From the NCBI GenBank assembly GCA_035692185.1, contig DASSIE010000010.1, forward strand, positions 2,879-66,878: a stretch of DNA of 64,000 nucleotides, written 5' to 3'. The number at the start of each line of letters is the position of its first letter. Position 1 is the first letter of the stretch. The DNA is from Patescibacteria group bacterium (lineage in GTDB: Bacteria; Patescibacteriota; Microgenomatia; UBA8517). The notes below the pieces were generated by a model. The model was not told the origin of the DNA. It saw only the letters and a program-made list of their open reading frames with translations, and searched no databases. The position numbers and the translations under genes are program-made. Positions 4,632 to 43,480 of the stretch are shown one piece after another.

Positions 4632-4658
4632 GGGTAAATTATACTATATATAACTTAT

Positions 4659-6104: not shown

Positions 6105-6111
6105 ACATGAT

Positions 6112-10304: not shown

Positions 10305-11927
10305 ATGAGAAAAATGCTTTTAATTTTAATAGTTGGAGTTGCCTTTTTTTTACGTGTTAACAAAATTACTCAAGTTCCACCTTCTTTAAACTGGGATGAA
10401 GTATCAATTGGCTATAATGCTTATTCAATACTAAAAACCGGCAGGGATGAATGGGGTAAATTTTTACCGGTTCACTTTAAGTCGTACGGGGAATATAAAT
10501 TACCCGCTCAGATATACGCTTCAATTCCGGCAATTGCAATATTTGGGCTTAATGAATTTGGCGTACGGATAACGCCGGTTATTTATGGCACTTTGACGAT
10601 ACTATTTATATATTTTTTGGTGCAGGAAATGTTTGGGAATAAGTATGTGTCATTAACTTCAGCATTTCTCCTGGCAATTTCTCCGTGGCATTTACAGCTA
10701 ACCAGGGCATCATTTGAGTCTTCATTTTCAGTTTTCTGGGTAGTTATCGGAGCATGGCTTTTTGTTAAAGGGTTCAGCGACAAAAAGTATTGGCTATGGT
10801 CGATATTGCCGTTCATTATATCAATATATACCTACAACGCCGCAAGAGTTTTTACACCGATCTTTTTATTTACAGTTTTTATTGTTTACAGAAGGGATAT
10901 CTTAAAAAATATAAAAATTGTCATTTTTGGCCTTTTAATTTTTGCGATATCGATGATTCCTCTAGCTAATTTTTTTGTAAGTGGGGAAGCTACGGCAAGA
11001 TTTAAGTTGGTTAGCATCACAAATGACCCAGGTTTTGTTTTAAGAACAAATGAGGCTAGGGGAAATACCAAGCTAGTGGCTCCGATGCCTAAATTAATCC
11101 ATAACAAAGTAACACACTATGTCTATGTATTTGTTGGAAATTATTTAAGTCATTTTTCTCCAGACTTTCTCTTCATTAGCGGCGCTGGGCATAAACAACA
11201 ACATGTGCAAGGAATTGGAGAGCTTTACTGGATTCAAGCACCATTTATACTAATTGGACTTTATTATCTTTTTAAAAATAAAAACAAATGGAGGTGGCTA
11301 ATTGTTTCATGGTTATTGATAGCATTTATTCCAGTTGCAGTTACTGTAGACAGTATTCCAAATGCATTAAGGACGATATTGGCGGTGATTCCTTACGCAA
11401 TACTCACGGCACTTGGCGTTTGGCAGATTTCTAACCATAGAATTATTATATTAGTATCACTATCAATTTTAATTATCAGCTTTTCAGGATATTTAAATAA
11501 TTACTACAACGTTTATCCAAAGAGCTATTCTCGTGACTGGCAATATGGTTACAAACAGGTAGCTTCATATATAAAAGCTAATTATAATAATTACGATTTA
11601 ATAGTTTTTAGTCGTACTTATGGGGAACCCCATATGTTTACTTTATTTTTCCTAAACTGGGATCCAGCAAGTTTCCAGAACAATCCAAATTTAGATAGAT
11701 ATGAGGCATACAGATGGATTTGGGTTTCTAAGTTCGACAAATTTTATTTCCCAGATTTAGGAGACAGTGGCACTAAATTTGAAGATGTTAAGAAGCAAAA
11801 CAAGGGTAAGAAAATACTGTTTATTGGTAAAGATGGCGATTTTCCCGACTCAGTCAAAAAATTATTGACAGTAAATTTTTTGAACGGCAATCCAGCATTT
11901 GAAATTGTTGAAATAAATGAAAAATAA
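10305..11927 (+). CDS. GT39/GT83-like (PMT/ArnT-type) membrane glycosyltransferase
   Basis: FLRVNKITQVPPSLNWDEVSIGYNAYSILKTGRDEWGKFLPVHFKSYGEYKLP. Polytopic. Conserved C-terminal domain (DWQYGYKQV...YGEPHMFTLFFL). Confidence 0.55.
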   Translation: MRKMLLILIVGVAFFLRVNKITQVPPSLNWDEVSIGYNAYSILKTGRDEWGKFLPVHFKSYGEYKLPAQIYASIPAIAIFGLNEFGVRITPVIYGTLTILFIYFLVQEMFGNKYVSLTSAFLLAISPWHLQLTRASFESSFSVFWVVIGAWLFVKGFSDKKYWLWSILPFIISIYTYNAARVFTPIFLFTVFIVYRRDILKNIKIVIFGLLIFAISMIPLANFFVSGEATARFKLVSITNDPGFVLRTNEARGNTKLVAPMPKLIHNKVTHYVYVFVGNYLSHFSPDFLFISGAGHKQQHVQGIGELYWIQAPFILIGLYYLFKNKNKWRWLIVSWLLIAFIPVAVTVDSIPNALRTILAVIPYAILTALGVWQISNHRIIILVSLSILIISFSGYLNNYYNVYPKSYSRDWQYGYKQVASYIKANYNNYDLIVFSRTYGEPHMFTLFFLNWDPASFQNNPNLDRYEAYRWIWVSKFDKFYFPDLGDSGTKFEDVKKQNKGKKILFIGKDGDFPDSVKKLLTVNFLNGNPAFEIVEINEK

Positions 11928-13263
11928 TTTTATTTTCGCCTTTGTTTTATTTTTATTTCTTGTCTCAAGAATTTATGGAATTGCAGAAATTCCAAAGTCT
12001 GTATATTGGGATGAGGCATCAATTGGATATAATGCATTTTCAATTGCAACTGACTTAAAAGATGAATGGGGAGAAAAGTTGCCATTACATTTTCGAGCAT
12101 TTGGAGAATTTAAACTCCCAGTTTATATTTATACGGTAGCGATTTTTGTAAAAGCAATTGGATTAAATGAATATGCAATAAGACTTCCGGCAGTTTTTTA
12201 TTCATTGGGCTCATTGATACTTGTCTATTTATTAACAAAAAAAATTACAGACAATGAACACACTGCAATTTTTGCAAGTTTTATTCTTATTTTTTCCCCT
12301 TGGTTTTTTATATTTTCAAGAACCGGGTATGAGACAACGGCAGGCCTTTTTTTCTTCTTGTTAGGAACCTACCTTTTTCTTGAGCATACCAAAAAGGGTA
12401 TTTATATTCTCTTTGGAATAATGTCTTTCATTTTGTCATTTTATAGCTATAACTCTTTTAGAGTTATTATCCCGATATGGTTAAGTTTAATGCTGATTTA
12501 CACATACAGTAAAAAGAACATCCCTATAATTATTATTTCGATATCAATTTTTTTGGTTAGTTTAATTCCTGTTTATAGACTTTATAAATTTGATTCGGGG
12601 GGTGCTCGCTTCGCCCAAGTTGAAATTACTAGCAAATTTGATTTTATTAAAAATTATGTTGCCCATTTTTCTCCAAACTTTCTTTTTCTAAAAGGGGACA
12701 CAAATCCTCGCAGCCAAATTCCGGGTCATGGTCAACTTTATTTGTTTGAATTACCACTTTTGCTCCTTGGTTTAGTTGCAATCATTAAGAGCAAAAAAGC
12801 ATTATATTACATACCTTTAATAATTCTTATTTTGGCTCCAATTCCGGCCTCTCTCACTCGTGAGTCGCCACATGCATTAAGATCCCTTCTCGCGGCTCCT
12901 GCTTTTGCAATGATGTCCGCATTAGGAATATATTTTCTGGCGGCCCATTTTAAAAAATACTCAAGCCTAATTGTCTTATTTGTAATAATTTGTTATTACC
13001 TATCCTTTGAGTCATACATGACATCTTTTATAACAAAATACCCATCTCTTTCTGCTTCTGATTGGCAATATCAGTATAAAGAGATATTTGCGACGCAAAA
13101 AAGTGGTAATGTTTCAGATAAATATGCTCAGCCATATATTTTTGCCCTTTATTATTTAAAGTACCCTCCTCAAAAGTTTAGAGATGAAGTTAAATTAAAC
13201 CCAATTAACGATTGGGGGTTTTCTAAAGTCTCATCATTTAACGGATTCAAATTTATAAAATGA
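11917..13263 (+). CDS. GT39/GT83-like (PMT/ArnT-type) membrane glycosyltransferase
   Basis: IAEIPKSVYWDEASIGYNAFSIATDLKDEWGEKLPLHFRAFGEFKLP. C-terminus DWQYQYKEI...PYIFALYYLKYPP. Overlaps the upstream gene. Confidence 0.55.
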   Translation: MKNNFIFAFVLFLFLVSRIYGIAEIPKSVYWDEASIGYNAFSIATDLKDEWGEKLPLHFRAFGEFKLPVYIYTVAIFVKAIGLNEYAIRLPAVFYSLGSLILVYLLTKKITDNEHTAIFASFILIFSPWFFIFSRTGYETTAGLFFFLLGTYLFLEHTKKGIYILFGIMSFILSFYSYNSFRVIIPIWLSLMLIYTYSKKNIPIIIISISIFLVSLIPVYRLYKFDSGGARFAQVEITSKFDFIKNYVAHFSPNFLFLKGDTNPRSQIPGHGQLYLFELPLLLLGLVAIIKSKKALYYIPLIILILAPIPASLTRESPHALRSLLAAPAFAMMSALGIYFLAAHFKKYSSLIVLFVIICYYLSFESYMTSFITKYPSLSASDWQYQYKEIFATQKSGNVSDKYAQPYIFALYYLKYPPQKFRDEVKLNPINDWGFSKVSSFNGFKFIK

Positions 13264-14825
13264 ATAAACTGAAACTAGTTGCCTTATTTTTTATTTTTAT
13301 TTTGGCTGCTGTTTTAAGGTTTTATAAAATTGACAAAGTTCCAGCCTCGCTTAATTGGGATGAGGTAGCGGCTGGTTATAATGCTTACACAATTGCCAAT
13401 TGGGGAGCGGATGAGTATGGTAAAAAGTTCCCAATAGTTTTTAAAAATTTTGGAGACGACAAACACCCTGTTCATATCTATATTACCGCGGCAGTTGTGA
13501 AAATATTTGGATTTTCAGATTATTCAACTCGTGCAGGTAGTGCACTTGTCGGCATGCTTATGGTTGTTGCAATTTATTTTCTTGCAAAAGAAATATTTAA
13601 AAGTGAACTCGCGGGAATTTTATCAAGTTTATTTTTTGCGGTTTCTCCATATGCAATACATTTTTCTAGAGGTTTATGGGAAGCAAATTTTGCGCTTTTT
13701 TTTATGGTTGCCGGAGTTACCGCTTTTTACTTAGGACTTAGGAAACAAAATTTTCTTATTCCGTTATCGTTTTTATTTTGGGGATTATCTTTTTTTTCGT
13801 ATCATTCCGCAAAAATTGTTGTTCCTCCATTAGTTTTATTTCTACTAGTAACTCATTTTAAAGAATTTATTATAAATAAAAAAAATTTGCTTTGGGCGAT
13901 ACTAATAACAATATTTTTTGCAGGCCTCATTATAAAGGAGCCTAGAATATTAGGATTTGCCAGAATTAATCAAACAAGATTTCCTGAAGAAGTAACTCAA
14001 AAATATGGTGGTGAGTTTGGAACAATTGCCCACAATTATAAAGACTATTTTACATATTCATATTTATTTGAAAAGGGAGATCAAACCCCAAGAGGTTCGG
14101 TAAAAGTGATTGGCGAATTTTACAGAATAGATTTTATTCTTTCTCTTGTTGGACTTTCTGTTCTTTTTGTCAAAAAGAAATGGGAAGTTTTGACTATTTT
14201 GTTTTCCTGGCTGTTACTCGCCCCAATTCCAGGTGCTGTATCTTCGGTTGACCCAGGTGCAACAAGGGGGATATTTATGCTAGCCCCGATTTTACTCCTT
14301 TCTGCATATGGAGCAACATCAATTGTACAAATGTTAAAACAAAATTGGGCAAAGTATTTATCAATTGTAGTTATATTAATATTTTTGGGATGGGAAGCTT
14401 TAAACTTTATAAATTACTATTTCAATACTTATCCCGTAAAAGATGCCATTGAATGGCAATATGGGATGAAAGACTCAGTTGCCTATGCTCAGAAGCACTC
14501 CGATTATAGCCTTGTATATATGGACAAAATAAGACAACAGCCATATATTTTCTTCCTTTATTACTTAAAAGTCCCACTTCCCGAGCTCTTGCGTTCGGTT
14601 AAATATGACCAAACAATATCTAGTAGTTACAATACAGTCTCTTCTTTTGGAAAGTACAATTTTGGAAATTGGGATCCAATAGAAAGTTATCCTTCTGCTG
14701 ATATTTTATACATTATTACACCCAGTTTTTATTCAGGGCTAAGATATATATCAAGCTTTGTCGTCCGCAAACTGGTAAAATATCCAGACGGCACTGATGC
14801 CTTCTATTTAGTATCTGGAAAATGA
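13260..14825 (+). CDS. GT39/GT83-like (PMT/ArnT-type) membrane glycosyltransferase
   Basis: FYKIDKVPASLNWDEVAAGYNAYTIANWGADEYGKKFPIVFKNFGDDKHP. C-terminus EWQYGMKDS...PYIFFLYYLKVP. ATGA overlap with the upstream gene. Confidence 0.55.
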   Translation: MNKLKLVALFFIFILAAVLRFYKIDKVPASLNWDEVAAGYNAYTIANWGADEYGKKFPIVFKNFGDDKHPVHIYITAAVVKIFGFSDYSTRAGSALVGMLMVVAIYFLAKEIFKSELAGILSSLFFAVSPYAIHFSRGLWEANFALFFMVAGVTAFYLGLRKQNFLIPLSFLFWGLSFFSYHSAKIVVPPLVLFLLVTHFKEFIINKKNLLWAILITIFFAGLIIKEPRILGFARINQTRFPEEVTQKYGGEFGTIAHNYKDYFTYSYLFEKGDQTPRGSVKVIGEFYRIDFILSLVGLSVLFVKKKWEVLTILFSWLLLAPIPGAVSSVDPGATRGIFMLAPILLLSAYGATSIVQMLKQNWAKYLSIVVILIFLGWEALNFINYYFNTYPVKDAIEWQYGMKDSVAYAQKHSDYSLVYMDKIRQQPYIFFLYYLKVPLPELLRSVKYDQTISSSYNTVSSFGKYNFGNWDPIESYPSADILYIITPSFYSGLRYISSFVVRKLVKYPDGTDAFYLVSGK

Positions 14826-15682
14826 AGAAACTCTCAATAGTACTGGCTACAAGAAATGAGCAAGAAAACTTAGCAAGATGTCTGGAGTCTGTTAAGGGGT
14901 TTGCAGATGAAATTATTGTTGTAGATGAATACTCTACAGACAAAACAGTTGAAATTGCCAAAAAATACGGGGCAAAAGTTTTTCTTGAACCACATCATGC
15001 TGTTTTTCATATAACAAAGCAAAAAGCATTAGATAAGGCTACGGGGGAGTGGGTACTCCAACTTGATGCAGACGAAGTGATATCTGATGAGCTTGCAAAA
15101 GAGATTAAATTAGCCATTAGCCATCAGTCATTAGCCATTAGCCCCAAAAAACAAAGACTGTTTAATCGACACCAAAGATTAATAGAAAATAGAGACGGTC
15201 TGATAGGTAAAAAAACTGGGGAGATAGTGGGCTATTTTATTGCACGGCGCAACATGTTTTTAGGTAAACCATTAATTCATGGTGGTGTATACCCCGATGG
15301 TGTTATAAGGCTTGTGAAAAATGGCAAGGCACATTTTCCTCAAAAGTCAGTTCATGAACAGATAGAGCTTGATGGAGAAGTCTATTGGCTTTCAAACGAC
15401 ATGTTGCATTACGACTCTCCAACTTTTGAAAGGTACCTCACCCGTTTAAACAGATATACAGATTTGCAGGCAGTCGAGTTAGAAGAAAATAAAGTCTCAA
15501 AAGGATTTTTCGGTCTTTTTCAATATACAATATACAAACCCCTGTATACCTTTTTAAATTTATACATTCGTCACCTTGGTTTCCTTGACGGTATGCGCGG
15601 TTTTGTGTGGGCATTATTTTCATCACTGCGTTATCCAATAGCATATTTTAAATATTGGGTAGAGAAAGGTAAAGACAAATGA
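14822..15682 (+). CDS. GT2 family glycosyltransferase (paralog of 56513..57238)
   Basis: LSIVLATRNEQENLARCLESVKGFADEIIVVDEYSTDKT...QLDADE, with C-terminal FLDGMRGF motif. Carries an extra in-frame LAISHQSLAIS repeat relative to its paralog. Confidence 0.6.
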   Translation: MKKLSIVLATRNEQENLARCLESVKGFADEIIVVDEYSTDKTVEIAKKYGAKVFLEPHHAVFHITKQKALDKATGEWVLQLDADEVISDELAKEIKLAISHQSLAISPKKQRLFNRHQRLIENRDGLIGKKTGEIVGYFIARRNMFLGKPLIHGGVYPDGVIRLVKNGKAHFPQKSVHEQIELDGEVYWLSNDMLHYDSPTFERYLTRLNRYTDLQAVELEENKVSKGFFGLFQYTIYKPLYTFLNLYIRHLGFLDGMRGFVWALFSSLRYPIAYFKYWVEKGKDK

Positions 15683-16686
15683 AAATAGCAATCGATAGCA
15701 GTCCGCTTACAAGTGGACATAAGATTAGAGGAGTAGGTTTTTATACTAGAAATTTAATAGCAGCGCTTGGAGACAATGTTGAGGCTGTTGATTTTAGTAA
15801 AGCAAATTTGAGTAAATACGATGTTATTCATCTACCATATTTTAATCCATTTTTTATCGACATACCTTTTGTTACTAAGCCAAAGTTAGTAGTAACAATT
15901 CATGACACAATTCCGTTGATCTATCCGGATATTTACAAACCTGGAATAAAGGGAAGAATTAGATTTTTTATTAATAAGTTAATCCTCAAAAGGGTAAGCG
16001 CGGTAATAACTCTTACAGAAACCTCCAAAAAAGATATCGTTAGGTTATTGGGAATTCCCGCTAAAAAAGTTTTTCCAATTTTCTTAGCTCCGGCGGTAAG
16101 GCCGAAAATTGTAAATAACGAGAAAGATAGGATTAGGAGGAAATATAATCTTCCTGAAAAATATGCTTTCTATGTAGGTGATATAAACTATGTAAAAAAC
16201 ATTCCAAGGATGGTGGAAGCTTGTAAAAAGGCGAAAATAGTACTTGTCATGTCTGGTAAACAAGTAAAAGACATAGAAAATCAAGATTTAAATCACCCAG
16301 AATTAGCGCATCTAAAAGGTATCAATTGGTCAGGGGTTATTAGGTTGGGGTATGCCCCAGATGAGGATGTGCCTGTGATATTTAGCATGGCAAGCGTCTT
16401 TGTACACCCCGCTTTGTATGAAGGCTTTGGTATAACAATAATAGAGGCAATGTCGTATGGAGTTCCGGTGGTTGCTGGTAAGGCACAGGCCTTAGTAGAA
16501 ATAGGTCAAGGCGGTTGTCTGTTCGCCAATCCAAAAAGTACCAACGACATCTCTGAAAAAATATCTGAAGTTCTTACAAACAAAACTCTTAGAAACCAAT
16601 TAATTGAAAGTGGAAAAGTGCTTGCTAAAAGTTACTCTTGGGAGAAAACTGCAAAAGAAACTTTAGAAGTTTACCGCCATGTATAA
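15679..16686 (+). CDS. GT4 family glycosyltransferase (GT-B, retaining)
   Basis: C-terminal EGFGITIIEAMSYGVPVV signature of Glycos_transf_1/GT4. Confidence 0.65.
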   Translation: MKIAIDSSPLTSGHKIRGVGFYTRNLIAALGDNVEAVDFSKANLSKYDVIHLPYFNPFFIDIPFVTKPKLVVTIHDTIPLIYPDIYKPGIKGRIRFFINKLILKRVSAVITLTETSKKDIVRLLGIPAKKVFPIFLAPAVRPKIVNNEKDRIRRKYNLPEKYAFYVGDINYVKNIPRMVEACKKAKIVLVMSGKQVKDIENQDLNHPELAHLKGINWSGVIRLGYAPDEDVPVIFSMASVFVHPALYEGFGITIIEAMSYGVPVVAGKAQALVEIGQGGCLFANPKSTNDISEKISEVLTNKTLRNQLIESGKVLAKSYSWEKTAKETLEVYRHV

Positions 16687-17824
16687 AAAAATCACTCTTT
16701 CGTTTTTGATTTGGCGTGTTGCACTTTTTTTAATTGCTTTTTTGGCTATTTATATTATCCCTGTCTATGGTGCTAGATTTCCGTATGTAGATAGGGTATT
16801 GGAAATTACACACCTTCCAAACTGGATTTGGGGATTTGGTGGTTTTGATGGTGTTCATTATCTTCGTATTGCCCAAGATGGTTATTTTGCTCAATTTTCA
16901 CAGGCATTTTTCCCATTATTTCCAATTTTGATTAAGGTTTTTTCATCTATTTTCCCGAGAGTTCCCAATCTTGATACCAATATTTTTACAGACCCTGCAT
17001 ATTTTTATTCAGGATTGATTCTCGCTAATTCATTTTTTCTCGGTTCCCTTTATATTTTATACAAGTTAATACTTATTGATTTCAAGAAGGATGTAGCATT
17101 TTTGACAATTATCCTACTTTTAGTATTTCCAACTTCTTTTTATTTCGGCGCGGTTTACACTGAGTCACTATTTTTGCTTCTCGCAGTGTTATCTGTTTAC
17201 CTTGTTAGGAAGAATAACTTCTTTTGGGCGGCTGTTCTAATTTCACTTGCAACTGCAACAAGAGTTTTTGGTGTGTTACTAATTCCTTTGTATATCATTG
17301 AAGTTGTTAAAAATAAAAATAAACTGAATTATCTTTGGACATTAATCACCCCTCTAGGCATATTGAGCTATATGTATTTTTTAAAAACTGAATTTAATAA
17401 TCCAATTTCTTTTTTAACAAGTCAGCCACTTTTTGGCGCTGGTCGTTCTGGAGGAGAAATAATTCTATTGCCCCAAGTCATATACAGATACTTAAAGATA
17501 TTTGTATCGATTGATCTATCTACATTAGGTTTTTTAAATGCATTTTTAGAATTTACATTTGCGCTCGTTCCATTGACATTTCTGATAGTATTTTTTAAGA
17601 AAATGAGGTTAAGTTACTGGATTTTTTCAGTTGGTACACTTTTGTTGCCAACATTCACTGGAACGTTTTCATCCATGCCAAGATATGTCCTAATCCCTAT
17701 GGTTTTACTTTTCCCAACTCTAATTATCCGATTTAGAAAGTATATTAAACCTGCTATTCTTATTTCTTGTATCCTAGGAGTTATCCTGACAATTTTATTT
17801 ATCAGAGGCTATTGGGTTGCATGA
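16679..17824 (+). CDS. Polytopic mannosyltransferase-like membrane protein (PIG-V/Gpi18-like, GT-C)
   Basis: The first loop motif FGGFDGVHYLRIAQDGYFAQFSQAFFPLFPIL resembles the D..HY..IA..GY...AFFPL signature of the PIG-V family. 381 aa with about 9 TM helices. Confidence 0.4.
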   Translation: MYKKITLSFLIWRVALFLIAFLAIYIIPVYGARFPYVDRVLEITHLPNWIWGFGGFDGVHYLRIAQDGYFAQFSQAFFPLFPILIKVFSSIFPRVPNLDTNIFTDPAYFYSGLILANSFFLGSLYILYKLILIDFKKDVAFLTIILLLVFPTSFYFGAVYTESLFLLLAVLSVYLVRKNNFFWAAVLISLATATRVFGVLLIPLYIIEVVKNKNKLNYLWTLITPLGILSYMYFLKTEFNNPISFLTSQPLFGAGRSGGEIILLPQVIYRYLKIFVSIDLSTLGFLNAFLEFTFALVPLTFLIVFFKKMRLSYWIFSVGTLLLPTFTGTFSSMPRYVLIPMVLLFPTLIIRFRKYIKPAILISCILGVILTILFIRGYWVA

Positions 17825-17828
17825 TTAT

Positions 17829-17862
17829 GAGTGTTTACAAATGATGAGTGTTTACAAATGAT
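17829..17862 (+). repeat. 17-bp perfect tandem duplication (gagtgtttacaaatgat x2) at the 5' end/leader of the flippase gene
   Basis: Read directly: 17829-17845 equals 17846-17862. It lies between the upstream stop (17822-17824) and the probable ATG ATG start at 17858/17861. Confidence 0.9.
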
Positions 17863-19138
17863 GATAAAACGAATTAAATCTATAATCGCTCACCCATTTT
17901 TTACTAGCAGTGCAATTATGGTTTTAGGAAGTAATTTTGCAAATGCACTGGCATTTATCTACCACCTTGTTATTGGAAGACTTTTGGGTCCTGTTCACTA
18001 CGGGGAACTTGCTGCCGTAATTTCACTGGCCACAATGTTTTCTGCCATTTTTACTTTTCTAAGCACTGTCGTAATTAAATTTACATCAAGCGCTAAGAAT
18101 AGAGATGAAGAGAACTATATATTTTCATGGTTTTCTCAAAAAAGTTTTTTTATTGCCTTAACACTTTTTATTTTGACACTAATATTTTCCCCAATATTTT
18201 CAAATTTTCTCCATATTGAATTAAAGGTTGTGTTGTTAGTTCCATTTTTCTTGTTTTTCTCATTGTTATCGATGGTGTTTAAGTCTTTTTTGCAAGGCCT
18301 CCTCAAGTTTTATGAAACAGTAATATCGTTAAATACAGAATTTATTCTAAGATTGTTATTGGGCATACTTTTTGTTTACCTTGGCTTCTCAGTTTATAGC
18401 GCAATATTAGGTATAGCAATCTCTGGAGCAATTGGTTTTTTTATAACCTTTTATTTTCTAAGGGATTACAAAGTATTGTTCAAAGGTAAAAAAATTAATT
18501 TTAATAAATAAATTTTAGCTTATTCATTGCCTGCATTTCTTTTTTCATTGACCTCCACTTCTTTTTTGACAACGGACACACTTTTAGCAAAACACTTTAT
18601 TGGCGCACACGATGCGGGTATTTACGCTTCACTTTCTAATTTAGGAAAAATAATTTTATACGGAACTATCCCCATCGGAGCTGTAATGTTTCCAATGGTT
18701 TCTAAAAGATTCTCAAAGGGACAAGGTTATATGAGAGTATTTTTGCTTAGTCTAATGCTAACATTTTTGGCTTCAGTTGTAGTTTTAGCAGTGTATAAAT
18801 TTTTGCCAGATGTTGCGATTAATATTTTATATGGAACTAGCTTTTTGGAAGGTGATAAATATTTAATCTGGTTTGGCCTTTTTGCATCAATTTATAGTCT
18901 TACAAGTTTAATTTGCTCATTTTATATGTCTATTGGAAAGGTACGAATTGTTATCTTGCCAATAATTTTTGCGATACTCCAGATAATTGGAATTATATTT
19001 GTTCATGATTCCATAATCGATATTATTAAAGTTTCAGTGGTTTCGGCTACACTTCTTCTGGTTTCTTTGTTAATATACCTTGTATATGAAACCAGAGCCA
19101 AAAACAAACTTAATATCGGTAGTGATCCCGGCCTATAA
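17831..19138 (+). pseudogene. wzx: Wzx-type oligosaccharide flippase (MOP superfamily) interrupted by a single in-frame TAA
   Basis: ORFs 17831..18511 and 18527..19138 are in the same frame, separated only by TAA at 18509-18511 (...KINFNK*ILAYSLPAFLF...). Together about 434 aa with Wzx-like N-half (GSNFANALAFIYHLVIGRLLGPVHYGELAAV) and C-half (LAKHFIGAHDAGIYASLSNLGKII). Could be a true pseudogene, a sequencing error or readthrough. Confidence 0.55.
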
Positions 19139-19895
19139 AGCTGAAACCTTTATTGTCAAAACCCTCACGGGTGTTAAAAATACACTCGATCAAATTCGTT
19201 ACCCATACGAAATTATATGTGTCGTTGATGGCAAAATCGACAAAACTTTTGAGAAAGCTACGAAATTTGCCGGTTTATATCCAAGAAAAATAAAGGTTAT
19301 TGGTTACAAAAAGAACATGGGCAAAGGTAACGCTGTTAAATTTGGCATGGCCAGGGCAAAAGGAAATATAATAGGGTTTATTGACGCTGGGGTTGAACTT
19401 AATCCAAACGGCATATCTATGTTACTTGAACATTTTGAATGGTATAGTGCAGACATTGTAGTGGGGTCAAAGAGGCACGCCGCATCAAAAATATATTACC
19501 CTTGGTACAGAAAAGTAATGTCCTTTGGCTATCAGGTCATCGTTGGGATATTGTTTGGTCTTAAGGTGAAAGATACACAAGTTGGCATGAAATTTTTTAA
19601 GAAAGAAGTTGTAAAAAAAGTATTGCCAAGACTTTTGGTTAAAGCATTTGCTTTTGACATAGAAATGCTATCAGTTGCAAATTATTTAGGTTATAAACGG
19701 ATTTATGAAGCCCCGGTTGAGCTCAAAATGAAGTTTTCAAATGCCTCGACAATTATGTCTAAAGGTTTTTTAAAGACTGTTTTATCGGTTTTTATAGATA
19801 CGTTGGCAGTATTCTATCGCTTGCACATCCTTCATTATTACGATTACAAAAACAGAAAGAATTGGATTATCCCAAAATATTTAATTCTGAAATAG
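19080..19895 (+). CDS. Dpm1/Alg5-like GT2 polyprenol-phosphate glycosyltransferase
   Basis: LISVVIPAYKAE...MGKGNAVKFGMARAKGNIIGFIDAG...KDTQVGMKFFKKEV (TQ.G.K motif of Dpm1/Alg5/GtrB type). Overlaps the flippase 3' end. Confidence 0.65.
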   Translation: MYMKPEPKTNLISVVIPAYKAETFIVKTLTGVKNTLDQIRYPYEIICVVDGKIDKTFEKATKFAGLYPRKIKVIGYKKNMGKGNAVKFGMARAKGNIIGFIDAGVELNPNGISMLLEHFEWYSADIVVGSKRHAASKIYYPWYRKVMSFGYQVIVGILFGLKVKDTQVGMKFFKKEVVKKVLPRLLVKAFAFDIEMLSVANYLGYKRIYEAPVELKMKFSNASTIMSKGFLKTVLSVFIDTLAVFYRLHILHYYDYKNRKNWIIPKYLILK

Positions 19896-20650: not shown

Positions 20651-22069
20651 ATGAGGATGCGCAAATATTTTATTTGGGGACTTTTTGTTATCCTGTTAAT
20701 CTTTACAAGATTTTATAATTTAGACAGAACCGCAAGATTTACGGAAGATGAGTCAAAAGATTTGGTTGGGATACATCAAGTCTTTGTAGATAAAAAGCTT
20801 ACTCTTGTAGGCCCAACAAATGAACAAGGTACAAAAGTTTTTAGCTCCCTAACGTTTTACATGTTGCTTCCATTTACGATAATAGGTAAGTTTGACCCGA
20901 TTAGCCCCCATTATGGAGCTGCCTTTTGGGGTGTAATTGTATCCATACTTCTAATATATTTTGTTAATAAAATAAACTCAAAGTTTACGGTTCCAATAGC
21001 ACTACTCACTCTAGTTTGGTTTCCATTTTTGGAAACTAGTAGGTGGGCTTGGAATCCAAATTTAATTCCACTGTGGGTAATTTCGGGAATTATATTAATT
21101 CAAATTCCCAAAAAGTATGCCCGGCTTTTGGCCGGAATTATATTTGGGTTTGCAGTTCACAGTCATTATTATTCAATTTTTGCTGTCGGAATATTTATGG
21201 CAATGTGGTCTGCATATTTCTTATATAAAAAACAATATTCATCATTTGTATTTTTGGGATTAGGTTTTACAATCTCAATTCTGCCTTTTGTAATTTTTGA
21301 TCTTCGCCATAGTCCTGGAATATTTTTACCAAATTTGTTTTCTCAATCGAAGTCTGTGGGAGGTGGATTGGACATGGGTCTAATTCTCCAAAAATTTACT
21401 TCAAATATATGGAGTTTGATGATTGAATACACCCAAGCAACTTATCTCGCAGTTCCACTAATGATTCTCTCTTTGATGCTTCTGATCCAAGATATTAAGA
21501 GAAAGTCCTTTTCCTTAATTTATTTTACCCCTTGGATATTTCAATCCATTATTATTGCCTGTTTACCTCAGTTCTTTCCACACTATCTGATACCTGGTCT
21601 AATATTTTTTCTAGTTTGGGTGATATATAAAAGAGGATTTTCAGGAAAACTTTTGTCTTATTCAATTTTAATAATTCTGATATTGAGAGGATTTATTTCA
21701 ATTTATTCCCAACTTACAACCCCAACTTCGATTCCAGATATTTCAATAACAAGACAGGTTGAAAAAAATATAAAAAACGAAATTGTGTCACGAAATTTGA
21801 AGAACATAAACATCGCGGTTCTAGCAAGTCCGGACACCACTACGTCGGGTAAAAAATACCGAGATCTGCTACTTGTTGACGGTAATATTCATATTTTGAC
21901 AAAGAATGAGTATCAAATAACTGATCATTTGTTTATAATTTCGACGTCCAGTGAGCAGGTTGTACGGAACGACCCCGCAACCGAAATACAAAGATTTAAA
22001 AAAGGAAAGTTGGCAAGCGTAATGCAGATTGATAATTCTGGCTGGTTTATTTACCATTTTTTAAGATGA
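20651..22069 (+). CDS. Polytopic GT-C-like membrane glycosyltransferase (distant GT39-like)
   Basis: N-terminal TM then FYNLDRTARFTEDESKDLVG (DE-type loop), then about 11 TM helices (472 aa). Confidence 0.35.
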   Translation: MRMRKYFIWGLFVILLIFTRFYNLDRTARFTEDESKDLVGIHQVFVDKKLTLVGPTNEQGTKVFSSLTFYMLLPFTIIGKFDPISPHYGAAFWGVIVSILLIYFVNKINSKFTVPIALLTLVWFPFLETSRWAWNPNLIPLWVISGIILIQIPKKYARLLAGIIFGFAVHSHYYSIFAVGIFMAMWSAYFLYKKQYSSFVFLGLGFTISILPFVIFDLRHSPGIFLPNLFSQSKSVGGGLDMGLILQKFTSNIWSLMIEYTQATYLAVPLMILSLMLLIQDIKRKSFSLIYFTPWIFQSIIIACLPQFFPHYLIPGLIFFLVWVIYKRGFSGKLLSYSILIILILRGFISIYSQLTTPTSIPDISITRQVEKNIKNEIVSRNLKNINIAVLASPDTTTSGKKYRDLLLVDGNIHILTKNEYQITDHLFIISTSSEQVVRNDPATEIQRFKKGKLASVMQIDNSGWFIYHFLR

Positions 22070-23163
22070 ATATATTAATACTTAGCTGGAGAGGTCCAGG
22101 CCATCCACTAGCGGGTGGGGCAGAGCAGGTTACCCGTGAGCATGCAAAAGGGTGGATTATAGCCGGAAATAAGATCACTATGTTTACATCACGTTTCGAG
22201 GGTGGAAAACCAAGTGAAACGGTAGATGGAATACAAATTATTAGGAGGGGAGATCAGTTTTTTGGCGTGAAATTGGCGGCATGTAAATGGTATTGGTTTG
22301 AAAATAAAGAGAAATTTGATTTAATAATTGACGAATTCCATGGCCTACCATTTTTTACACCACTTTGGGCTCCAAATGTAAAAAAAATAGGTTTTATCCA
22401 TGAAGTTGCCCAAAAGGTTTGGTCGCTAAACCCTTGGCCCTGGCCGTTTAATAAAATTGCTGCCATTTTAGGTAAATCTGGTGAGCCTTGGATATTTAAA
22501 CTTTTATACACTAAAGTTTCGTTTATGACGGTTTCAAACTCAACTGCCCACGACTTAAAAGCTTGGGGTATAAAAAAAGTAACAGTGATACCAAATGGTG
22601 TTTTGTTGCCAAAAAAATTACCAAAAGTTAAAAAGGATAAAGATTTTACTTTAATATACTTATCAGCTCTTGCTAAAGACAAAGGGGTAGAGGATGCAAT
22701 TGCAACCTTTAATATCGTCAAAGAGAAAATTCCAAATGCTAAATTTTGGATAGTTGGTAAAAGTTATCCAAAATACACAAACTATTTAAAGAGTATGTGC
22801 CCGGAAGCTAAGTTTTGGGGATATGTAACGGATGAAAATAAATTTGATTTGTTGTCGCGGGCTCATTTATTAATATTTCCATCAGTACATGAAGGTTGGG
22901 GACTTGTAATAATAGAGGCAGCTAGTGTTGGTACGCCGACTATTGCCTACAACGTCTCAGGGGTTAGAGACGCCGTAGTGGAAGGTAAAACAGGTTTAAT
23001 GGCAAATAAAGAGACTCCGGAGGAGTTATACAAACTGATTTTGGAATTATATAAAAGTAAAAATCTTTATTTAAAGTTAAGTAAAAATGCAAAAGAATGG
23101 AGCAAAAACTTTTCTTGGGAGCAAAGTATAAAAGAAAGTACTTCATTAATTAATAAAATATAG
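22066..23163 (+). CDS. GT4 family glycosyltransferase
   Basis: EGWGLVIIEAASVGTPTIAYNVSG; GT-B two-domain length (365 aa). ATGA overlap with the upstream gene. Confidence 0.65.
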   Translation: MNILILSWRGPGHPLAGGAEQVTREHAKGWIIAGNKITMFTSRFEGGKPSETVDGIQIIRRGDQFFGVKLAACKWYWFENKEKFDLIIDEFHGLPFFTPLWAPNVKKIGFIHEVAQKVWSLNPWPWPFNKIAAILGKSGEPWIFKLLYTKVSFMTVSNSTAHDLKAWGIKKVTVIPNGVLLPKKLPKVKKDKDFTLIYLSALAKDKGVEDAIATFNIVKEKIPNAKFWIVGKSYPKYTNYLKSMCPEAKFWGYVTDENKFDLLSRAHLLIFPSVHEGWGLVIIEAASVGTPTIAYNVSGVRDAVVEGKTGLMANKETPEELYKLILELYKSKNLYLKLSKNAKEWSKNFSWEQSIKESTSLINKI

Positions 23164-26625: not shown

Positions 26626-29082
26626 ATGCCTAAAAATAAAAAAAATGTATTAGTAACAGGGTCGGGTGGTTTAATTGGATCTGAGTCAGTGCATTTTTTT
26701 TGCGAAAAAGGATTTAATGTTATAGGAATCGACAATAATATGAGGGAGTATTATTTCGGACAAGAGGCAAGTACGAAAGGTAATGTTAAACAAATAGTTG
26801 ATACATACAAAAATTATAAACATTTTAATTGTGATATAAGGGACTCTGAAAATATTGAAGAAATATTTAAAACTTATAATTTTGATTTAATTATTCATAC
26901 AGCTGCGCAACCATCACATGATTGGGCCGCGAGGGAACCCCAGACTGACTTCAGTGTTAACGCAAACGGGACACTTAACCTGCTCGAGAATTTTAGAAAA
27001 TATTCTCCAAAAGCAGTTTTTATTTATACTTCAACTAATAAAGTTTATGGTGACACACCAAACAAATTGCCACTAATTGAACTAAAAACTAGATATGAGA
27101 TTGAATCAAGTCATAAATATAAAAATGGAATTGATGAATCAATGTCGATCGACAATAGCACTCATTCGTTGTTTGGTGTGTCAAAAGCTTCAGCTGATTT
27201 AATGGTTCAGGAGTACGGGAAATATTTTGGTTTATTTACTGGAGTTTTTAGGGGTGGGTGTCTTACAGGTTCTCGACATGCTGGAACGCAACTCCATGGA
27301 TTTTTGTCGTACTTAATTAAAAGTATTGTTACAGGCAAAAAATATACAATATTTGGTTACAAAGGAAAACAAGTTCGGGATAACATTCATTCACACGACT
27401 TGGTAAACGCTTTTTATCATTTTTATTTAAAACCCAGGATTGGTGAAGTCTATAATATTGGAGGATCAAGATACTCTAACGTCTCGATGTTGGAGGCAAT
27501 TGATAAAATAGAAAAAGTTACAGGCAAAAAAGCCAATGTAGAATATGTTGATGAAAACAGAATAGGAGACCATATTTGGTATGTTTCTTCAGTAAAAAAA
27601 TTTCAATCGCACTATCCAGAATGGAAGTATGAATACGATATAGATGCAACCATTTGGGATATTTGTAAAAATAGTGAATTTGCCAAAGATTTAATTTCAT
27701 TTTCAATTGCAAGGGATTTAGATTATTGGAGAGATAAAAATTGGTATTTTCATAATGCCTTAAAGGATATTTTTAAAACTTTTATTCCAGAGGATTCTAA
27801 AGTGCTTCAAGTTGGGTATGGTTTGGGTGACATATTAGCATCACTTTTTCCAAAAAATGCTTTAAGTGTTGATGACGATCCAAATATAATTATCAGTTCA
27901 ACTAAAAGATATCCCCATATTAGATTTCAGAATTTAGATATCGCCAAAACAAACATAAAAGAAAAATTTGATTATGTGATATTTCCAAACTCAATTGAGC
28001 ACATGTTTGATGTACAAACTGTTTTAGAGAAAGTAAAGAGTAGCCTTCATAAAGATTCAAGAATAATTATCACGTCTGTAAATCCTCGCTGGCAACAGCT
28101 TTTTTCCATATTAGAGAAATTCAAACTTAAAAGACCTGAGGCTCCAAAAAATTGGTTAAGACTTGAAGATCTGGTTAATATTGTTGAAATTTCTGGCTAT
28201 GAAATAGTTAATACAGGCTTTAAAGTTCTTTTACCTACGCATATACCACTTATTAGCAATTGGGTTAATAAGTTTAACTCACGTTTTTGTGTTGAGCAGT
28301 ATTTGGTTGCAAAGTCGAAGATCAAAAGTAAGGCAAAACCACTTACTTGTTCGGTAATAATACCTTGCTTTAACGAGGAGGAAAATATTAAGAAATGTAT
28401 TAATTCCGTGCCGAAGATGGGCAAGAGAACCGAAATAATTGTAGTTGACGACGGGTCAACAGATAAGACTTCAAGTGTTGTTAAAAATTTGATGAAGAAA
28501 AATAAAAATTTAAGATTAATATCATATAAACCAAATAAAGGGAAAGGTTATGCAGTAAAGCAGGGTTTTGATGGTGCCAAAGGGGATGTGGTAATGATTT
28601 TGGATGCTGATATGGCAGTACCTGTATCGGAGTTGCCGAGGTTTTTCAATTTATTAGAGTCTAAAGAAGCTGGTTTTGTAAATGGCACACGTTTAATTTA
28701 TCCAATGGAAGATCAGGCAATGCGGCAATTAAACTTAATTGGAAATCTTGTTTTTGGATGGATATTCTCATGGGTATTAAATCAAAGAATAACAGACACT
28801 TTATGTGGGACCAAAGCATTGCTTAAAAAGGATTATTTAAAAATTAAAATGGGTGGAGAATCATGGGGTGACTTCGACCTATTATTCGGCGCTGCAGAAA
28901 ACAAACTTAAAATCGTAGACATGCCTGTTCACTATATGAGGAGAGTGGCAGGTAAGTCAAAAATGAAAGCATTTCAGCATGGCTTGGTACTAGCTAAAAT
29001 GTGTTTCGTAGGTTGGTGGCGTTTAAAAGCGTCTCCATTATTTCGTAACACGAAAAGAGATGTGAGAAAACGGGTAAAATAA
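26626..29082 (+). CDS. Tri-domain fusion: N-terminal NDP-sugar epimerase-like SDR domain, central class-I-MTase-like domain, C-terminal Dpm1-like GT2 polyprenol-phosphate glycosyltransferase
   Basis: Residues 1-~340: [12 protein letters not shown]...STNKVYGD, resembling CDP-paratose 2-epimerase-type SDRs, but the YxxxK Tyr is replaced ([10 protein letters not shown]). Residues ~380-540: [12 protein letters not shown]...[14 protein letters not shown] (MTase-like fold). Residues ~560-818: [14 protein letters not shown]...[12 protein letters not shown]...[29 protein letters not shown]...[10 protein letters not shown] (Dpm1/ArnC-like). Confidence 0.6.
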
Positions 29083-29592
29083 AGGAGTCTCTACAGGTTC
29101 AACTTCATATTTAAGTTTGTTCTTAACAAATATTTTTTTCCATTGATCAGGACGTCTAAAAGTAAACGGAATGCGCATAAACGGGTTATGAATTTTATTT
29201 AAGATGTAATCAGATATTGTTCCAATTAATGTTGGTTGGACCTCAAAGATTAGAACCTGCTTTGATACTCTTAAGGCGTCAAGGATTAATTTTTCCTGGA
29301 TAGTGTATGGAATATGATGAAGAACATCATTAAACATTGCACTTTTAAACTCATTTCTTTTGAAAGGTAAGGAATCCTCCTTTTTAATTAGTTTAAACGC
29401 GATTTTGTTTGTGAGATATTTTAAGGTATCGCATCCATATATCTTTAAATCGAAATCCTCCGCTATCTGCTTACTCACAACTCCATTTCCGCAACCAACA
29501 TCTACGACCTTTTCGTTTGATTTTAGCCACCTTTGATAAGCCTTAATGATTAACTTACCTCGTATTTTTGATGTGTAATCAGCGAGTGCCAT
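29038..29592 (-). CDS. Class I SAM-dependent methyltransferase
   Basis: [14 protein letters not shown] motif I, FNDVLHHI post-II. 184 aa. 3' end overlaps the convergent tri-domain gene by 45 nt. Confidence 0.55.
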
Positions 29593-41002: not shown

Positions 41003-41005
41003 ATT

Positions 41006-43479: not shown

Positions 43480-43480
43480 T

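Follow-up and report, generated by a model that had tools for sequence, protein, structure and literature searches.

Three polyprenyl-phosphate glycosyltransferase-like GT2 enzymes linked with Wzx and GT-C genes in a conserved glycosylation locus of Microgenomates

The window analysed here, a stretch of 64,000 nt (contig DASSIE010000010.1 of GCA_035692185.1, positions 2,879 to 66,878) from an uncultured member of the Patescibacteria (Microgenomates), encodes three GT2 enzymes resembling polyprenyl-phosphate glycosyltransferases, each no more than four genes away from a GT-C gene; two of the three lie downstream of a Wzx-type flippase gene. Their most likely function is to attach single sugars to a lipid carrier in the membrane, and in the favoured model, for which a probability of about 0.6 is estimated, they make polyprenyl-phosphate-monosaccharides that Wzx flips and that GT-C enzymes use as donors. 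Direct observation covers the family resemblance, the fold, the phosphate-binding residues, the gene order with its conservation and the absence of an initiating phosphoglycosyltransferase from the locus.

All 57 open reading frames (ORFs) of at least 150 aa, together with those cut by the window ends, were examined (coding coverage 99.1% of the window), and Logan contigs L084 and L085 supplied 2.9 kb of flank upstream and 1.9 kb downstream. The comparison set comprised 87 other loci, 85 of them from related genomes. Eleven GT2 domains are present, the three mentioned above and eight others, accompanied by seven GT4 transferases as further enzymes of cytoplasmic type. In addition, Pfam identified two Wzx genes, one of which is interrupted, and one Wzy_C gene, and the tailoring genes include at least ten methyltransferase domains and two acetyltransferases. 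The three GT2 enzymes are as follows:

19086-19895, + strand: focal GT2, polyprenyl-phosphate glycosyltransferase-like, 269 aa, TM-less; PF00535, E = 4e-26
26626-29082, + strand: tri-domain protein with an SDR epimerase/dehydratase (residues 8-330), a SAM methyltransferase (382-528) and a GT2 domain (residues ~570-818)
54088-54792, + strand: second stand-alone polyprenyl-phosphate glycosyltransferase-like GT2, 234 aa, TM-less; PF00535, E = 4e-32

The preliminary description assigned these three to the Dpm1/Alg5 type. In sequence, profile and fold, only they among the 11 GT2 domains resemble the dolichol-phosphate-mannose synthase (DPMS) of Pyrococcus furiosus, GtrB, ArnC and AglJ. Their best solved relatives are P. 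furiosus DPMS, GtrB and ArnC, their NCBIfam matches to AglJ, PpgS, ArnC and PgfS span the full length, and they are mutual best long matches within the window, while the GT2 paralog 56513, taken as negative control, matches GmaR and SunS best. AglJ is the best NCBIfam match of both 54088 (TIGR04182, 102 bits, full length) and the C-terminal domain of 26626 (98 bits), against a cut-off of 325 bits, and PDB sequence searches with both return GtrB, DPMS and ArnC. The profile matches of the focal GT2 are weaker, at about 50 bits (51 against a PgfS cut-off of 500), and its closest PDB sequence matches are DPMS (5mlz) and GtrB (5ekp). None of the GT2s reaches the curated cut-off of AglJ, PpgS, ArnC, PgfS or Dol-P-hexose transferase; because the scores lie far below every named-equivalog cut-off, the three would, judged by sequence, belong at most to the broad polyisoprenyl-phosphate glycosyltransferase group and to no named subfamily. 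Five further GT2s were considered as additional lipid-phosphate-sugar synthases, namely 41881, 32193 and 61826, which carry C-terminal hydrophobic segments, as well as 14822 and 56513, and were rejected on NCBIfam and PDB matches of the rhamnosyltransferase, PgaC, SunS and GmaR types.

Regarding the catalytic motifs, a DXD followed by TD[TM][EL].[CG].K had been ascribed to all three enzymes. The combination is found in 54088 (D88-A-D90, TDMETCYK), whose orthologs are 60-79% identical across Microgenomates, and in the GT2 domain of 26626 (nt ~28333-29082, PF00535; D660-A-D662, TDTLCGTK), which occurs in related loci as a stand-alone protein (26), fused to a methyltransferase (4) or in tri-domain form (5). 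It does not hold for the focal enzyme, where the metal-site motif reads F-I-D-A-G-V-E (D100-A-G102-V-E104) in place of DXD, and the second motif is KDTQVGMK, its DTQVGMK part being apparently similar to the Alg5 motif DTQCGFK. The variant D-x-G-x-[D/E] is present in 73 of 73 scorable orthologs. Compared to the DXD of P. furiosus DPMS (89-DADLQH-94; D94 and D96 in GtrB), Asp91 is replaced by Gly, and an acidic residue that could take over metal binding occupies the position of Gln93. The ORF of the focal gene stands as first described except for its start, which had been set at 19080 and is the ATG at 19086 according to the deposited 269-aa protein (P0001).

The ligands of the Dol-P phosphate in P. 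furiosus DPMS are R117, R131 and S135 (PMC5526996). Their equivalents in the focal family (K129/R130, R142 and S146) are invariant in a 15-sequence alignment, with a residue mapping that recovers the published GtrB numbering. By the same mapping, 54088 and 26626 have arginines (R117 and R689, respectively) at the R117 position of DPMS, which is R122 of GtrB, and equivalents of R131 and S135 are not evident in either protein. The AF2 model of the focal GT2 (pLDDT 75) has the GT-A core of P. furiosus DPMS, human DPM1 and Alg5, and its top 17 Foldseek matches in the PDB are all ArnC, GtrB or DPMS (TM 0.55-0.70), followed closely by generic GT2s (GpgS, RmlT and WrtF, TM 0.55-0.63). Helices 139-157 and 228-248, the most hydrophobic of the model, sit where the interface (juxtamembrane) helices of DPMS and GtrB sit, in a part with model confidence of 57-73. 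A hydropathy scan found no TM helix in the focal GT2, 54088 or the 26626 domain, and no DPM2/DPM3-like or GacJ-like partner subunit was identified for them. Human DPM1 also lacks a TM segment (PMC4728340) and, like GacI, relies on partners, so the missing TM leaves membership in this group possible.

The focal gene belongs to a first conserved cassette, listed here with two further GT-C-type genes, 20651 and 29579, the second of which is located two genes from the tri-domain gene:

8821-10299, 10305-11927, 11917-13263 and 13260-14825, + strand: four tandem PMT_2-type GT-C genes; PF13231, PF02366
14822-16686, + strand: GT2 (GmaR/SunS-like, as is its paralog 56513) and GT4, cytoplasmic cassette members identified by Pfam and NCBIfam
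16679-17824, + strand: PIG-V-like GT-C membrane glycosyltransferase, immediately upstream of Wzx; PF04188 (Mannosyl_trans2), E = 4e-11
17858-19138, + strand: gene for a Wzx-type flippase, sharing 53 nt with the focal GT2; its N-terminal half matches PF01943
20651-22069, + strand: Pfam-less polytopic GT-C-fold protein; AF2 pLDDT 89, pTM 0.88
22066-23163, + strand: GT4 transferase; PF00534, E = 1e-31
29579-31351, - strand: polytopic protein of 590 aa, GT-C-like; related by hhalign to the PMT paralog 6112 (96.3%, E = 2e-9)

The order of three to four PMT_2 genes, GT2, GT4, PIG-V-like GT-C, Wzx, focal GT2 and GT4 is conserved. In 71 of 80 Microgenomates genomes, the focal-GT2 ortholog directly follows a Wzx gene on the same strand, mostly with an overlap; the PIG-V-like gene accompanies them in 54 of the 80, at position -2 in 49 loci and -1 in five. 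Upstream of these, a GT4 occupies position -3 in 50 loci and the first GT2 position -4 in 36, and most related loci have three to four PMT_2-type genes ahead of the cassette. On the downstream side, the immediate neighbour of the focal GT2 is most often a homolog of the GT4 22066-23163 (GT4 at +1 in 41 loci). In this genome the Wzx gene is broken by an in-frame TAA at 18509-18511; the ortholog in L002 is intact (425 aa), with Glu at the position of the stop. The protein 20651 can be placed by structure, as the top 33 Foldseek PDB matches of its model are all GT-C enzymes (foremost ALG12, AftB, ArnT, PglB, STT3, ALG9, PimE and Pmt4), and hhalign relates it to the PMT_2 paralog 13260 at 96.9%. 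Its family is confined to Patescibacteria and has an invariant D31-E32 in the first loop. Moreover, the pairing of 29579 with the 26626-type GT2 recurs in related loci.

At 50.6-64 kb, the second cassette resembles a gene cluster of O-antigen type, with the order Wzx, GT2, methyltransferase, 54088, GT4, GT2, GT-C, GT4, GT4, acetyltransferase, GT2 and Wzy_C, and is conserved in three further genomes (L086-L088). The remaining GT-C genes lie between the two cassettes and upstream of the first one:

50638-51921, + strand: further Wzx-type flippase, opening the second cassette and in the same place in L086-L088; PF13440, PF01943
57235-58563, + strand: PMT_2-type GT-C, position kept in L086-L088; PF13231, E = 1.5e-6
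62754-64000, + strand: Wzy_C (O-antigen ligase/polymerase-like), cut by the window end; PF04932, E = 8e-11
37602-39818, 44170-47715 and 47930-50683, + strand: three large AftD-like GT-C-type membrane proteins; weak match to PF11847
1008-2189, + strand: GT-C gene, GT87-like
4659-6104, + strand: GT-C gene
6112-7788, - strand: GT-C gene
7757-8842, - strand: GT-C gene, with the weakest support
2739-4631, - strand: polytopic protein without family

The L085 extension completes the Wzy_C protein at 464 aa and shows another PMT_2 gene after it. Among the AftD-like proteins (region 37602-50683), GT4, FkbM, GT2-methyltransferase and methyltransferase genes are interspersed; orthologs of 44170 carry PF11847, 37602 aligns with 44170 by blastp (27% over 627 aa) and 47930 with 37602 by hhalign (98.6%). 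The protein 2739-4631, in the region 1008-8842, and its paralog gave no significant Pfam (best DUF6798, E = 0.008), PDB or hhalign match. The "about 17" GT-C-like membrane proteins counted previously fit with 15 supported ones and two polytopic proteins without assignment.

Two linked sets of a GT-A enzyme, a flippase candidate and GT-C genes can be recognised: 16679, Wzx 17858-19138, 19086 and 20651 as the first set, and Wzx 50638, 54088 (four genes downstream) and 57235 as the second, the latter kept in L086-L088. Adjacency to GT-C genes and conservation of the paralogs had been raised earlier as points for comparison with related genomes; the GT-C/Wzx/focal GT2 arrangement is seen across Microgenomates and the cassette of 54088 in L086-L088. 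As no GtrA-type flippase gene was found by Pfam on the ORFs of the window (99.1% coverage), Wzx is the sole flippase candidate.

In the favoured model, each TM-less peripheral GT2 would take one sugar off its nucleotide donor and place it on the monophosphate of a polyprenyl, probably undecaprenyl, carrier at the cytoplasmic face, and the Wzx-type flippases encoded next to two of the GT2s would carry the lipid-phosphate-sugar to the outer face. There, the GT-C enzymes (PMT_2-like, PIG-V-like, AftD-like, 20651 and 29579) would take it as donor, attaching sugars singly to extracytoplasmic acceptors, maybe proteins of the cell surface or glycopolymers anchored in the membrane or wall. In 26626, the fused SDR and methyltransferase domains presumably modify the sugar of its GT2 domain, as is known from the Arn pathway. 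What the lipid acceptor, the sugars and the final acceptors are, that Wzx acts as a flippase and which synthase serves which GT-C enzymes are all inferences. The model is weakened because the first-cassette Wzx has a premature stop in this genome and the focal GT2 is without the canonical second Asp of DXD; because no membrane anchor was identified, the profile scores are below cut-off and generic GT2s follow closely in the fold ranking; and because 54088 and 26626 show no evident counterparts of R131 and S135.

In a very unlikely alternative, the three proteins are ordinary cytoplasmic GT2s that extend an Und-PP-oligosaccharide or a soluble or lipid acceptor within a classical Wzx/Wzy cluster whose initiator lies elsewhere, the GT-C enzymes receiving donors from another source or serving as polymerases, ligases or oligosaccharyltransferases. 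Family scores that all fall under the curated cut-offs, the closeness of soluble GT2s such as GpgS and WrtF in the fold ranking, the absence of TM helices and of a canonical focal DXD, and the plentiful Wzx, Wzy_C, GT4 and GT2 genes would fit it. However, the top matches by sequence and structure are consistently polyprenyl-phosphate glycosyltransferases, the DPMS phosphate-binding triad is kept in the focal family, and in 71 of 80 genomes Wzx and GT-C genes closely accompany the focal gene; moreover, the 15 GT-C enzymes need lipid-linked donors, for which there is no other candidate synthase in the 64 kb.

The absence of a WbaP/WecA-type initiating transferase from the window, as previously described, was borne out, as neither PF02397 nor PF00953 was found in the 57 ORFs that reach 150 aa, nor in the end-cut ORFs, with family-less ORFs scanned by Pfam up to E = 5. 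The same tool detects WecA and PglC probes at 106 and 212 bits, and phmmer --max with both probes against the six-frame window returned nothing (best E = 0.91 and 5.1). Likewise, neither domain occurs in the flanks (-2.9 kb and +1.9 kb), a motif scan, phmmer and Pfam searches with recurrent families of unknown kind turned up no initiator within about 10 kb of the focal ortholog in 80 genomes, and none of WbaP/PglC or WecA/MraY type appeared across the 87 other loci. Three kinds of candidates were discarded: the best PglC-probe match, in L025 (E = 0.038, 11.6 bits), was taken as noise among 4766 targets; regex signature matches were due to chance or of CapD type only, phmmer being the more sensitive method; and a 379-aa, 10-TM Levybacteria-type family, WecA-like by size, had no Pfam match and no DGxDG, and carries a GT-C-like YDIFNY ... 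GHND. An initiator missing from a cluster is ordinary: E. coli O-antigen clusters depend on a wecA encoded elsewhere.

From this absence and the many GT-C genes, the preliminary description had concluded that lipid-linked oligosaccharide block assembly was less likely and that the locus was built on stepwise extracytoplasmic glycosylation. The former conclusion finds no support, as the seven GT4, eight other GT2, two Wzx and Wzy_C genes argue for lipid-linked oligosaccharide assembly, in line with the O-antigen-type second cassette; the initiator of such an oligosaccharide is either encoded elsewhere or an AglJ-like GT2. The latter holds in part: the GT2/Wzx/GT-C linkage is conserved, but stepwise glycosylation outside the membrane cannot be the whole story, because cytoplasmic GT4 and GT2 genes are many and a Wzy_C gene is present.

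An AglJ-like start would make a phosphoglycosyltransferase unnecessary. In this archaeal style of initiation, which is unlikely, at least one of the GT2s, with 54088 as the foremost candidate, would prime polyprenyl monophosphate as AglJ of Haloferax does. The adjacent GT4 and GT2 enzymes would lengthen the chain on the cytoplasmic side, and the lipid-phosphate-oligosaccharide, once flipped by Wzx, would be transferred or polymerised by GT-C or Wzy_C proteins. Besides the AglJ matches of 54088 and 26626, this is consistent with the Dol-P tetrasaccharide begun by AglJ and extended by AglG, AglI and AglE (PMC3871713), the second cassette without a phosphoglycosyltransferase in four genomes, and the lack of an initiator in the neighbourhood (about 10 kb) of the focal gene across 80 genomes. 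However, AglJ and AglD types are inseparable by sequence, with scores here far under the AglJ cut-off, oligosaccharide carriers with a monophosphate link have yet to be established in bacteria, and a housekeeping WecA/TagO-type enzyme elsewhere accounts for the same data. To our knowledge, moreover, the Wzy_C-family enzymes characterised so far all use diphosphate-linked glycans. More doubtful still than any other reading is the broader proposal that Microgenomates build a major surface glycan without any phosphoglycosyltransferase, by AglJ-like priming (54088 or the focal GT2), cytoplasmic extension, Wzx and GT-C/Wzy_C; if true, an archaeal-type monophosphate-linked pathway would be fixed in a bacterial class, with D-x-G-x-[D/E] as a lineage-specific catalytic variant.

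The missing initiator would also be explained by a lipoglycan variant of the favoured model, similar to LM/LAM or GPI, which appears distinctly unlikely: the GT4s would prime a membrane glycerolipid in the cytoplasm, and after flipping, the PIG-V-like and PMT_2-like GT-C enzymes would elongate it outside from the polyprenyl-phosphate-sugar of the focal GT2, with no phosphoglycosyltransferase. The conserved core of GT4, PIG-V-like (GT76-type) GT-C, GT87-like GT-C and Dpm1-like GT2 agrees with it, as mycobacterial PIM/LM/LAM and eukaryotic GPI synthesis employ the GT4, GT-C and Dpm1-like enzyme classes. Its basis is this resemblance of classes, and against it, PDB sequence searches with the cassette GT4s gave generic GT4 matches with no specific PimA/PimB, and no lipid-anchor synthesis genes were seen in the window.

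Among the known systems close to the favoured model is GacI/GacJ/GacK/GacL of Streptococcus pyogenes, for the addition of GlcNAc side chains to the group A carbohydrate, where a TM-less GT-A makes a C55-P-sugar that passes by a Wzx-type flippase to an outside GT-C (PMC8035078). The architecture is alike, with adjacent genes here too; the differences are the lack of a GacJ-like small partner beside the GT2, many GT-C genes instead of one, and D-x-G-x-[D/E] instead of DXD in the focal enzyme. The backbone of the group A carbohydrate itself is begun by a WecA-type enzyme. In Haloferax volcanii, AglD makes Dol-P-mannose, the Wzx homolog AglR helps its crossing and AglS transfers the sugar outside, with AglJ as the related GT2 that starts a monophosphate-linked oligosaccharide (PMC3871713). 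The set of GT2, Wzx homolog and outside transferase is shared, as is the AglJ-type match; however, that system is archaeal and dolichol-based, the match reaches 102 of 325 bits, and Pfam revealed no gene of STT3/AglB type in the window. The same logic of a GT2 lipid-phosphate-sugar synthase, a flippase and a GT-C is known from GtrA/GtrB/GtrC, ArnC/ArnE-F/ArnT and CsbB/GtcA/YfhO; the fold of the focal protein is matched best by ArnC and GtrB, and the tailoring fusion of 26626 recalls the Arn pathway. Those synthases, in contrast to the three TM-less GT2s, have C-terminal TM helices and form tetramers (PMC4728340), and their flippases are the small GtrA or ArnE/F, absent here.

A literature search for published work joining CPR/Patescibacteria with GT-C or phosphoglycosyl transferases returned nothing. 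The decoration of cell surfaces from lipid-phosphate-sugars is known, from Gram-positive bacteria and haloarchaea, so the advance would be one of scope and lineage and not of principle; what is unusual here is the scale and the conservation of two cassettes across Microgenomates. The window is not a one-genome oddity, as the cassettes, which couple lipid-phosphate-sugar synthase-like enzymes to Wzx and an exceptional number of GT-C transferases, extend across Woese-, Davies-, Levy-, Ames- and Roizmanbacteria. They raise the question of whether a bacterial lineage is able to manage without an initiating phosphoglycosyltransferase. Most Patescibacteria (CPR), which are ultra-small, have not been cultured, and many live as episymbionts; their surfaces mediate attachment to the host, and their envelope glycans are barely known. 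For the building of these surfaces, the locus offers testable candidates, with three small, soluble and easily expressed enzymes and a defined motif variant to mutate.

With a G+C content of about 33% and 99.1% of its length covered by ORFs of at least 150 aa, the window encodes, according to a Pfam scan of all these ORFs and of both ORFs cut at the window ends, eleven GT2 and seven GT4 domains, at least ten methyltransferase domains, two hexapeptide acetyltransferases, several SDR epimerases/dehydratases, one UDP-GlcNAc 2-epimerase and one NUDIX protein, besides numerous polytopic membrane proteins. Three of the GT2s (PF00535), namely the focal protein of ORF 19080-19895, 54088-54792 and the C-terminal domain of 26626-29082, had been singled out in the preliminary description as Dpm1/Alg5/GtrB-type, a choice that proved sound. 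Their top solved relatives by sequence are the P. furiosus Dol-P-Man synthase (5mlz), GtrB (5ekp) and ArnC, their best long hits in an all-against-all blastp are one another, and the remaining eight GT2s fall into other types (rhamnosyltransferase, PgaC, SunS and GmaR). None of the three carries a TM helix. In NCBIfam, 54088 and the 26626 domain align over their full length with AglJ (102 and 98 bits, respectively), as well as with PpgS, a haloarchaeal Dol-P-hexose transferase, ArnC and PgfS, the focal GT2 being weaker at about 40-50 bits (PgfS, PpgS, ArnC); none of the three reaches a curated cut-off, all scores being far lower. The proteins of 19080-19895, 54088-54792 and 20651-22069 are exact matches to deposited proteins, with their nearest relatives in Woesebacteria and Daviesbacteria, which places the organism within the Microgenomates (CPR).

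Regarding the fold, the AlphaFold model of the focal GT2 (pLDDT 75, pTM 0.77) has ArnC, GtrB and DPMS as its top 17 PDB matches (TM 0.55-0.70), followed by generic GT2 enzymes (TM 0.55-0.63), and its most hydrophobic helices, 139-157 and 228-248, match the DPMS/GtrB interface helices in position. The modelled fold supports the assignment as a polyprenyl-phosphate GT, short of proof, since the lead over generic GT2s is modest.

The three GT2s were aligned with PfDPMS and GtrB segments, and the alignment is considered valid, as the published GtrB numbering (D94, D96, R122, R125, K132, A136, Y140, D157) was recovered. In PfDPMS, the Dol-P phosphate is held by R117, R131 and S135 (PMC5526996); their focal counterparts, K129/R130, R142 and S146, are invariant in a 15-sequence alignment, the R117/R122 position is occupied by R117 in 54088 and R689 in 26626, and a basic residue at the A-loop R202 position is kept in all three. 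The motif TD[TM][EL].[CG].K, attributed earlier to all of them, is present in 54088 and 26626 but not in the focal ORF, which reads KDTQVGMK, and the expected DXD site of the latter holds D-A-G-V-E. The PfDPMS metal ligand D91 is replaced there by Gly and Q93 by Glu, shifting the acidic residue of the focal family from the D91 position to the Q93 position. This D-x-G-x-[D/E] pattern (D100-E104, codons at 19383-19397) occurs in 73 of the 73 scorable orthologs, out of 81, and is a fixed trait of the family and no error. Since PfDPMS D91A keeps residual activity, credited to Q93 and R202 (PMC5526996), it is plausible that a carboxylate in place of Q93 could bind the metal instead.

The preliminary description had also found no WbaP/WecA-type initiating transferase in the 64 kb, which the searches bear out. 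Pfam, which scores WecA and PglC probes at 106 and 212 bits, detects neither PF02397 nor PF00953 in any part of the window, ORFs without assignment having been scanned up to E = 5. A phmmer --max search with the WecA/PglC probes, run on all six-frame translations of 60 aa or longer from the window and 88 loci (1.5 Mb), was likewise negative, the best match having an E of 0.038 and 11.6 bits. The transferase is absent from both flanks too, where Logan contigs add 2.9 kb upstream, with two Pfam-less membrane proteins, and 1.9 kb downstream, with the remainder of Wzy_C and another PMT_2 gene. That block assembly is less likely, as was argued earlier, does not follow: everything for cytoplasmic oligosaccharide assembly is present except the initiating enzyme. 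Either a housekeeping initiating enzyme sits elsewhere in the genome or, a rather improbable alternative, a monophosphate-linked glycan would be primed by an AglJ-like GT2. The location of such an enzyme outside the glycan cluster is common. A further variant would be a lipoglycan (LM/LAM- or GPI-like) route, with a GT4 priming on a membrane lipid.

GT-C, Wzx and Wzy_C genes of the window, named by lower coordinate, with their support in brackets
1008, 6112, 7757 (weak), 8821, 10305, 11917, 13260: GT-C (direct Pfam support)
16679: GT-C, PIG-V type (direct Pfam support)
37602: GT-C, AftD type (Pfam, weak)
57235: GT-C (direct Pfam support)
4659: GT-C (clear paralog of the PMT_2 group)
44170: GT-C (paralog of 37602; PF11847 in 44170 orthologs)
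47930: GT-C (hhalign to 37602, probability 98.6%)
29579: GT-C (hhalign to 6112, probability 96.3%)
20651: GT-C, Pfam-less (model pLDDT 89; top 33 PDB matches all GT-C)
17858-19138 and 50638-51921: Wzx genes (Pfam)
62754 to window end: Wzy_C gene (Pfam)

The leading PDB matches of the 20651 model are ALG12, AftB, ArnT, PglB, STT3, ALG9, PimE and Pmt4, and its first loop has an invariant Asp-Glu. Of the about 17 GT-C-like proteins proposed earlier, 15 are supported by Pfam, paralogy, hhalign or modelling, whereas two polytopic proteins lack such a link. The polytopic proteins of 2739-4631 (minus strand; 630 aa) and 1-1011 (the C-terminus of a 530-aa protein) are paralogs, 30% identical over 359 aa, and have a 522-aa Pfam-less neighbour just beyond the window (the group extends into the flanking contig L084, 660-3889); for these three, neither Pfam nor PDB gave a detectable relative, and hhalign did not connect them with the GT-C paralogs. 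The sole sizeable intergenic gap, 47716-47929, lies between two giant AftD-like membrane proteins and encodes a peptide of some 72 aa that has three hydrophobic helices and matches nothing in Pfam; loci L086-L088 also have a small gene called at this position.

Orthologs of the focal protein in Woese-, Davies-, Levy-, Ames- and Roizmanbacteria share 53-85% identity with it. Among the 80 genomes having an ORF upstream of its gene, a Wzx homolog lies immediately 5' on the same strand in 71, usually overlapping; a PIG-V-like GT-C is at -2 in 49 and at -1 in 5, a GT4 at -3 in 50 and a GmaR/SunS-like GT2 at -4 in 36. Three to four PMT_2 genes come before these, and in 41 genomes position +1 is taken by a GT4. 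The Wzx gene of the window is split by an in-frame TAA at 18509-18511 into ORFs of 226 and 203 aa, where the intact 425-aa ortholog of the related locus L002 has a Glu (GAA-type codon); the stop could reflect a true nonsense mutation, a gene that is split or a fault of the assembly.

Directly after the focal GT2, about 17 related loci (e.g., L073 10801-12822 and L059 10802-12610) encode a protein of 600-675 aa that carries a signal peptide and lacks any Pfam match; in the window, this place is taken by a methyltransferase and the 20651 GT-C. In Levybacteria-type loci (L067 4919-6058; L056, L068, L079), a 379-aa, 10-TM Pfam-less protein, WecA-like in size and GT-C-like in motifs (YDIFNY, GHND), replaces the PMT_2 block. 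Many cassette-bearing GTDB records (L004-L083) are titled "uncultured Gammaproteobacteria bacterium", which is probably the submitter's placeholder taxonomy, because their proteins are 55-78% identical to those of Woesebacteria/Daviesbacteria.

The 54088 region constitutes a second conserved cassette, beginning with an AftD-like GT-C, the small ORF, a protein of about 910-930 aa, Wzx, GT2, methyltransferase and 54088, and continuing with GT4, GT2, PMT_2, GT4, GT4, acetyltransferase, a 175-aa protein, GT2, Wzy_C and PMT_2. Three more genomes share it, and in one of these both cassettes are on a single 493-kb contig, 13 kb apart. Each cassette has one of the GT2 paralogs 14822-15682 and 56513-57238, which are 37% identical, overlap a PMT_2 GT-C gene by 4 nt and best match GmaR and SunS, GT2s that glycosylate protein or peptide. 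In relatives, GT-C genes lie near the focal gene (PIG-V-like in 54 of 80) and 54088 (PMT_2 in three), and the 26626-type GT2 is often next to a 29579-type GT-C. ORF 26626-29082 runs from an SDR similar to CDP-tyvelose 2-epimerase (1orr, E 5e-37) through a SAM methyltransferase to the GT2 that resembles lipid-P-sugar synthases; in relatives, this GT2 type stands alone in 26 cases, in a methyltransferase-GT2 fusion in four and in the full SDR-methyltransferase-GT2 form in five, a series that links sugar tailoring to the presumed lipid charging.

In GacI/GacK/GacL, a variant of multi-component transmembrane glycosylation, a GT-A that is cytoplasmic and lacks TM helices works with a Wzx-type flippase and a GT-C (PMC8035078). 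The TM-less GT2, Wzx and GT-C genes of the window show the same arrangement, which also matches haloarchaeal AglD/AglR/AglS (PMC3871713). Neither a GtrA-type flippase nor a clear GacJ/DPM3-like tether was found in the window; speculatively, the small three-helix ORF at 47716-47929 is a tether candidate. The logic of the system is already known; in the searchable literature, no report was found of its being fixed in two cassettes across a class of CPR bacteria, of a TM-less synthase that is coupled to Wzx and has a D-x-G-x-[D/E] site, of an SDR-methyltransferase-GT2 tri-domain fusion or of so many GT-C genes. From the match to both known arrangements, a scheme is proposed, with a probability of about 0.6, where each of the three GT2s would load one sugar onto polyprenyl phosphate, Wzx would flip the lipid-P-sugar, and the GT-C enzymes would then use it outside the membrane.
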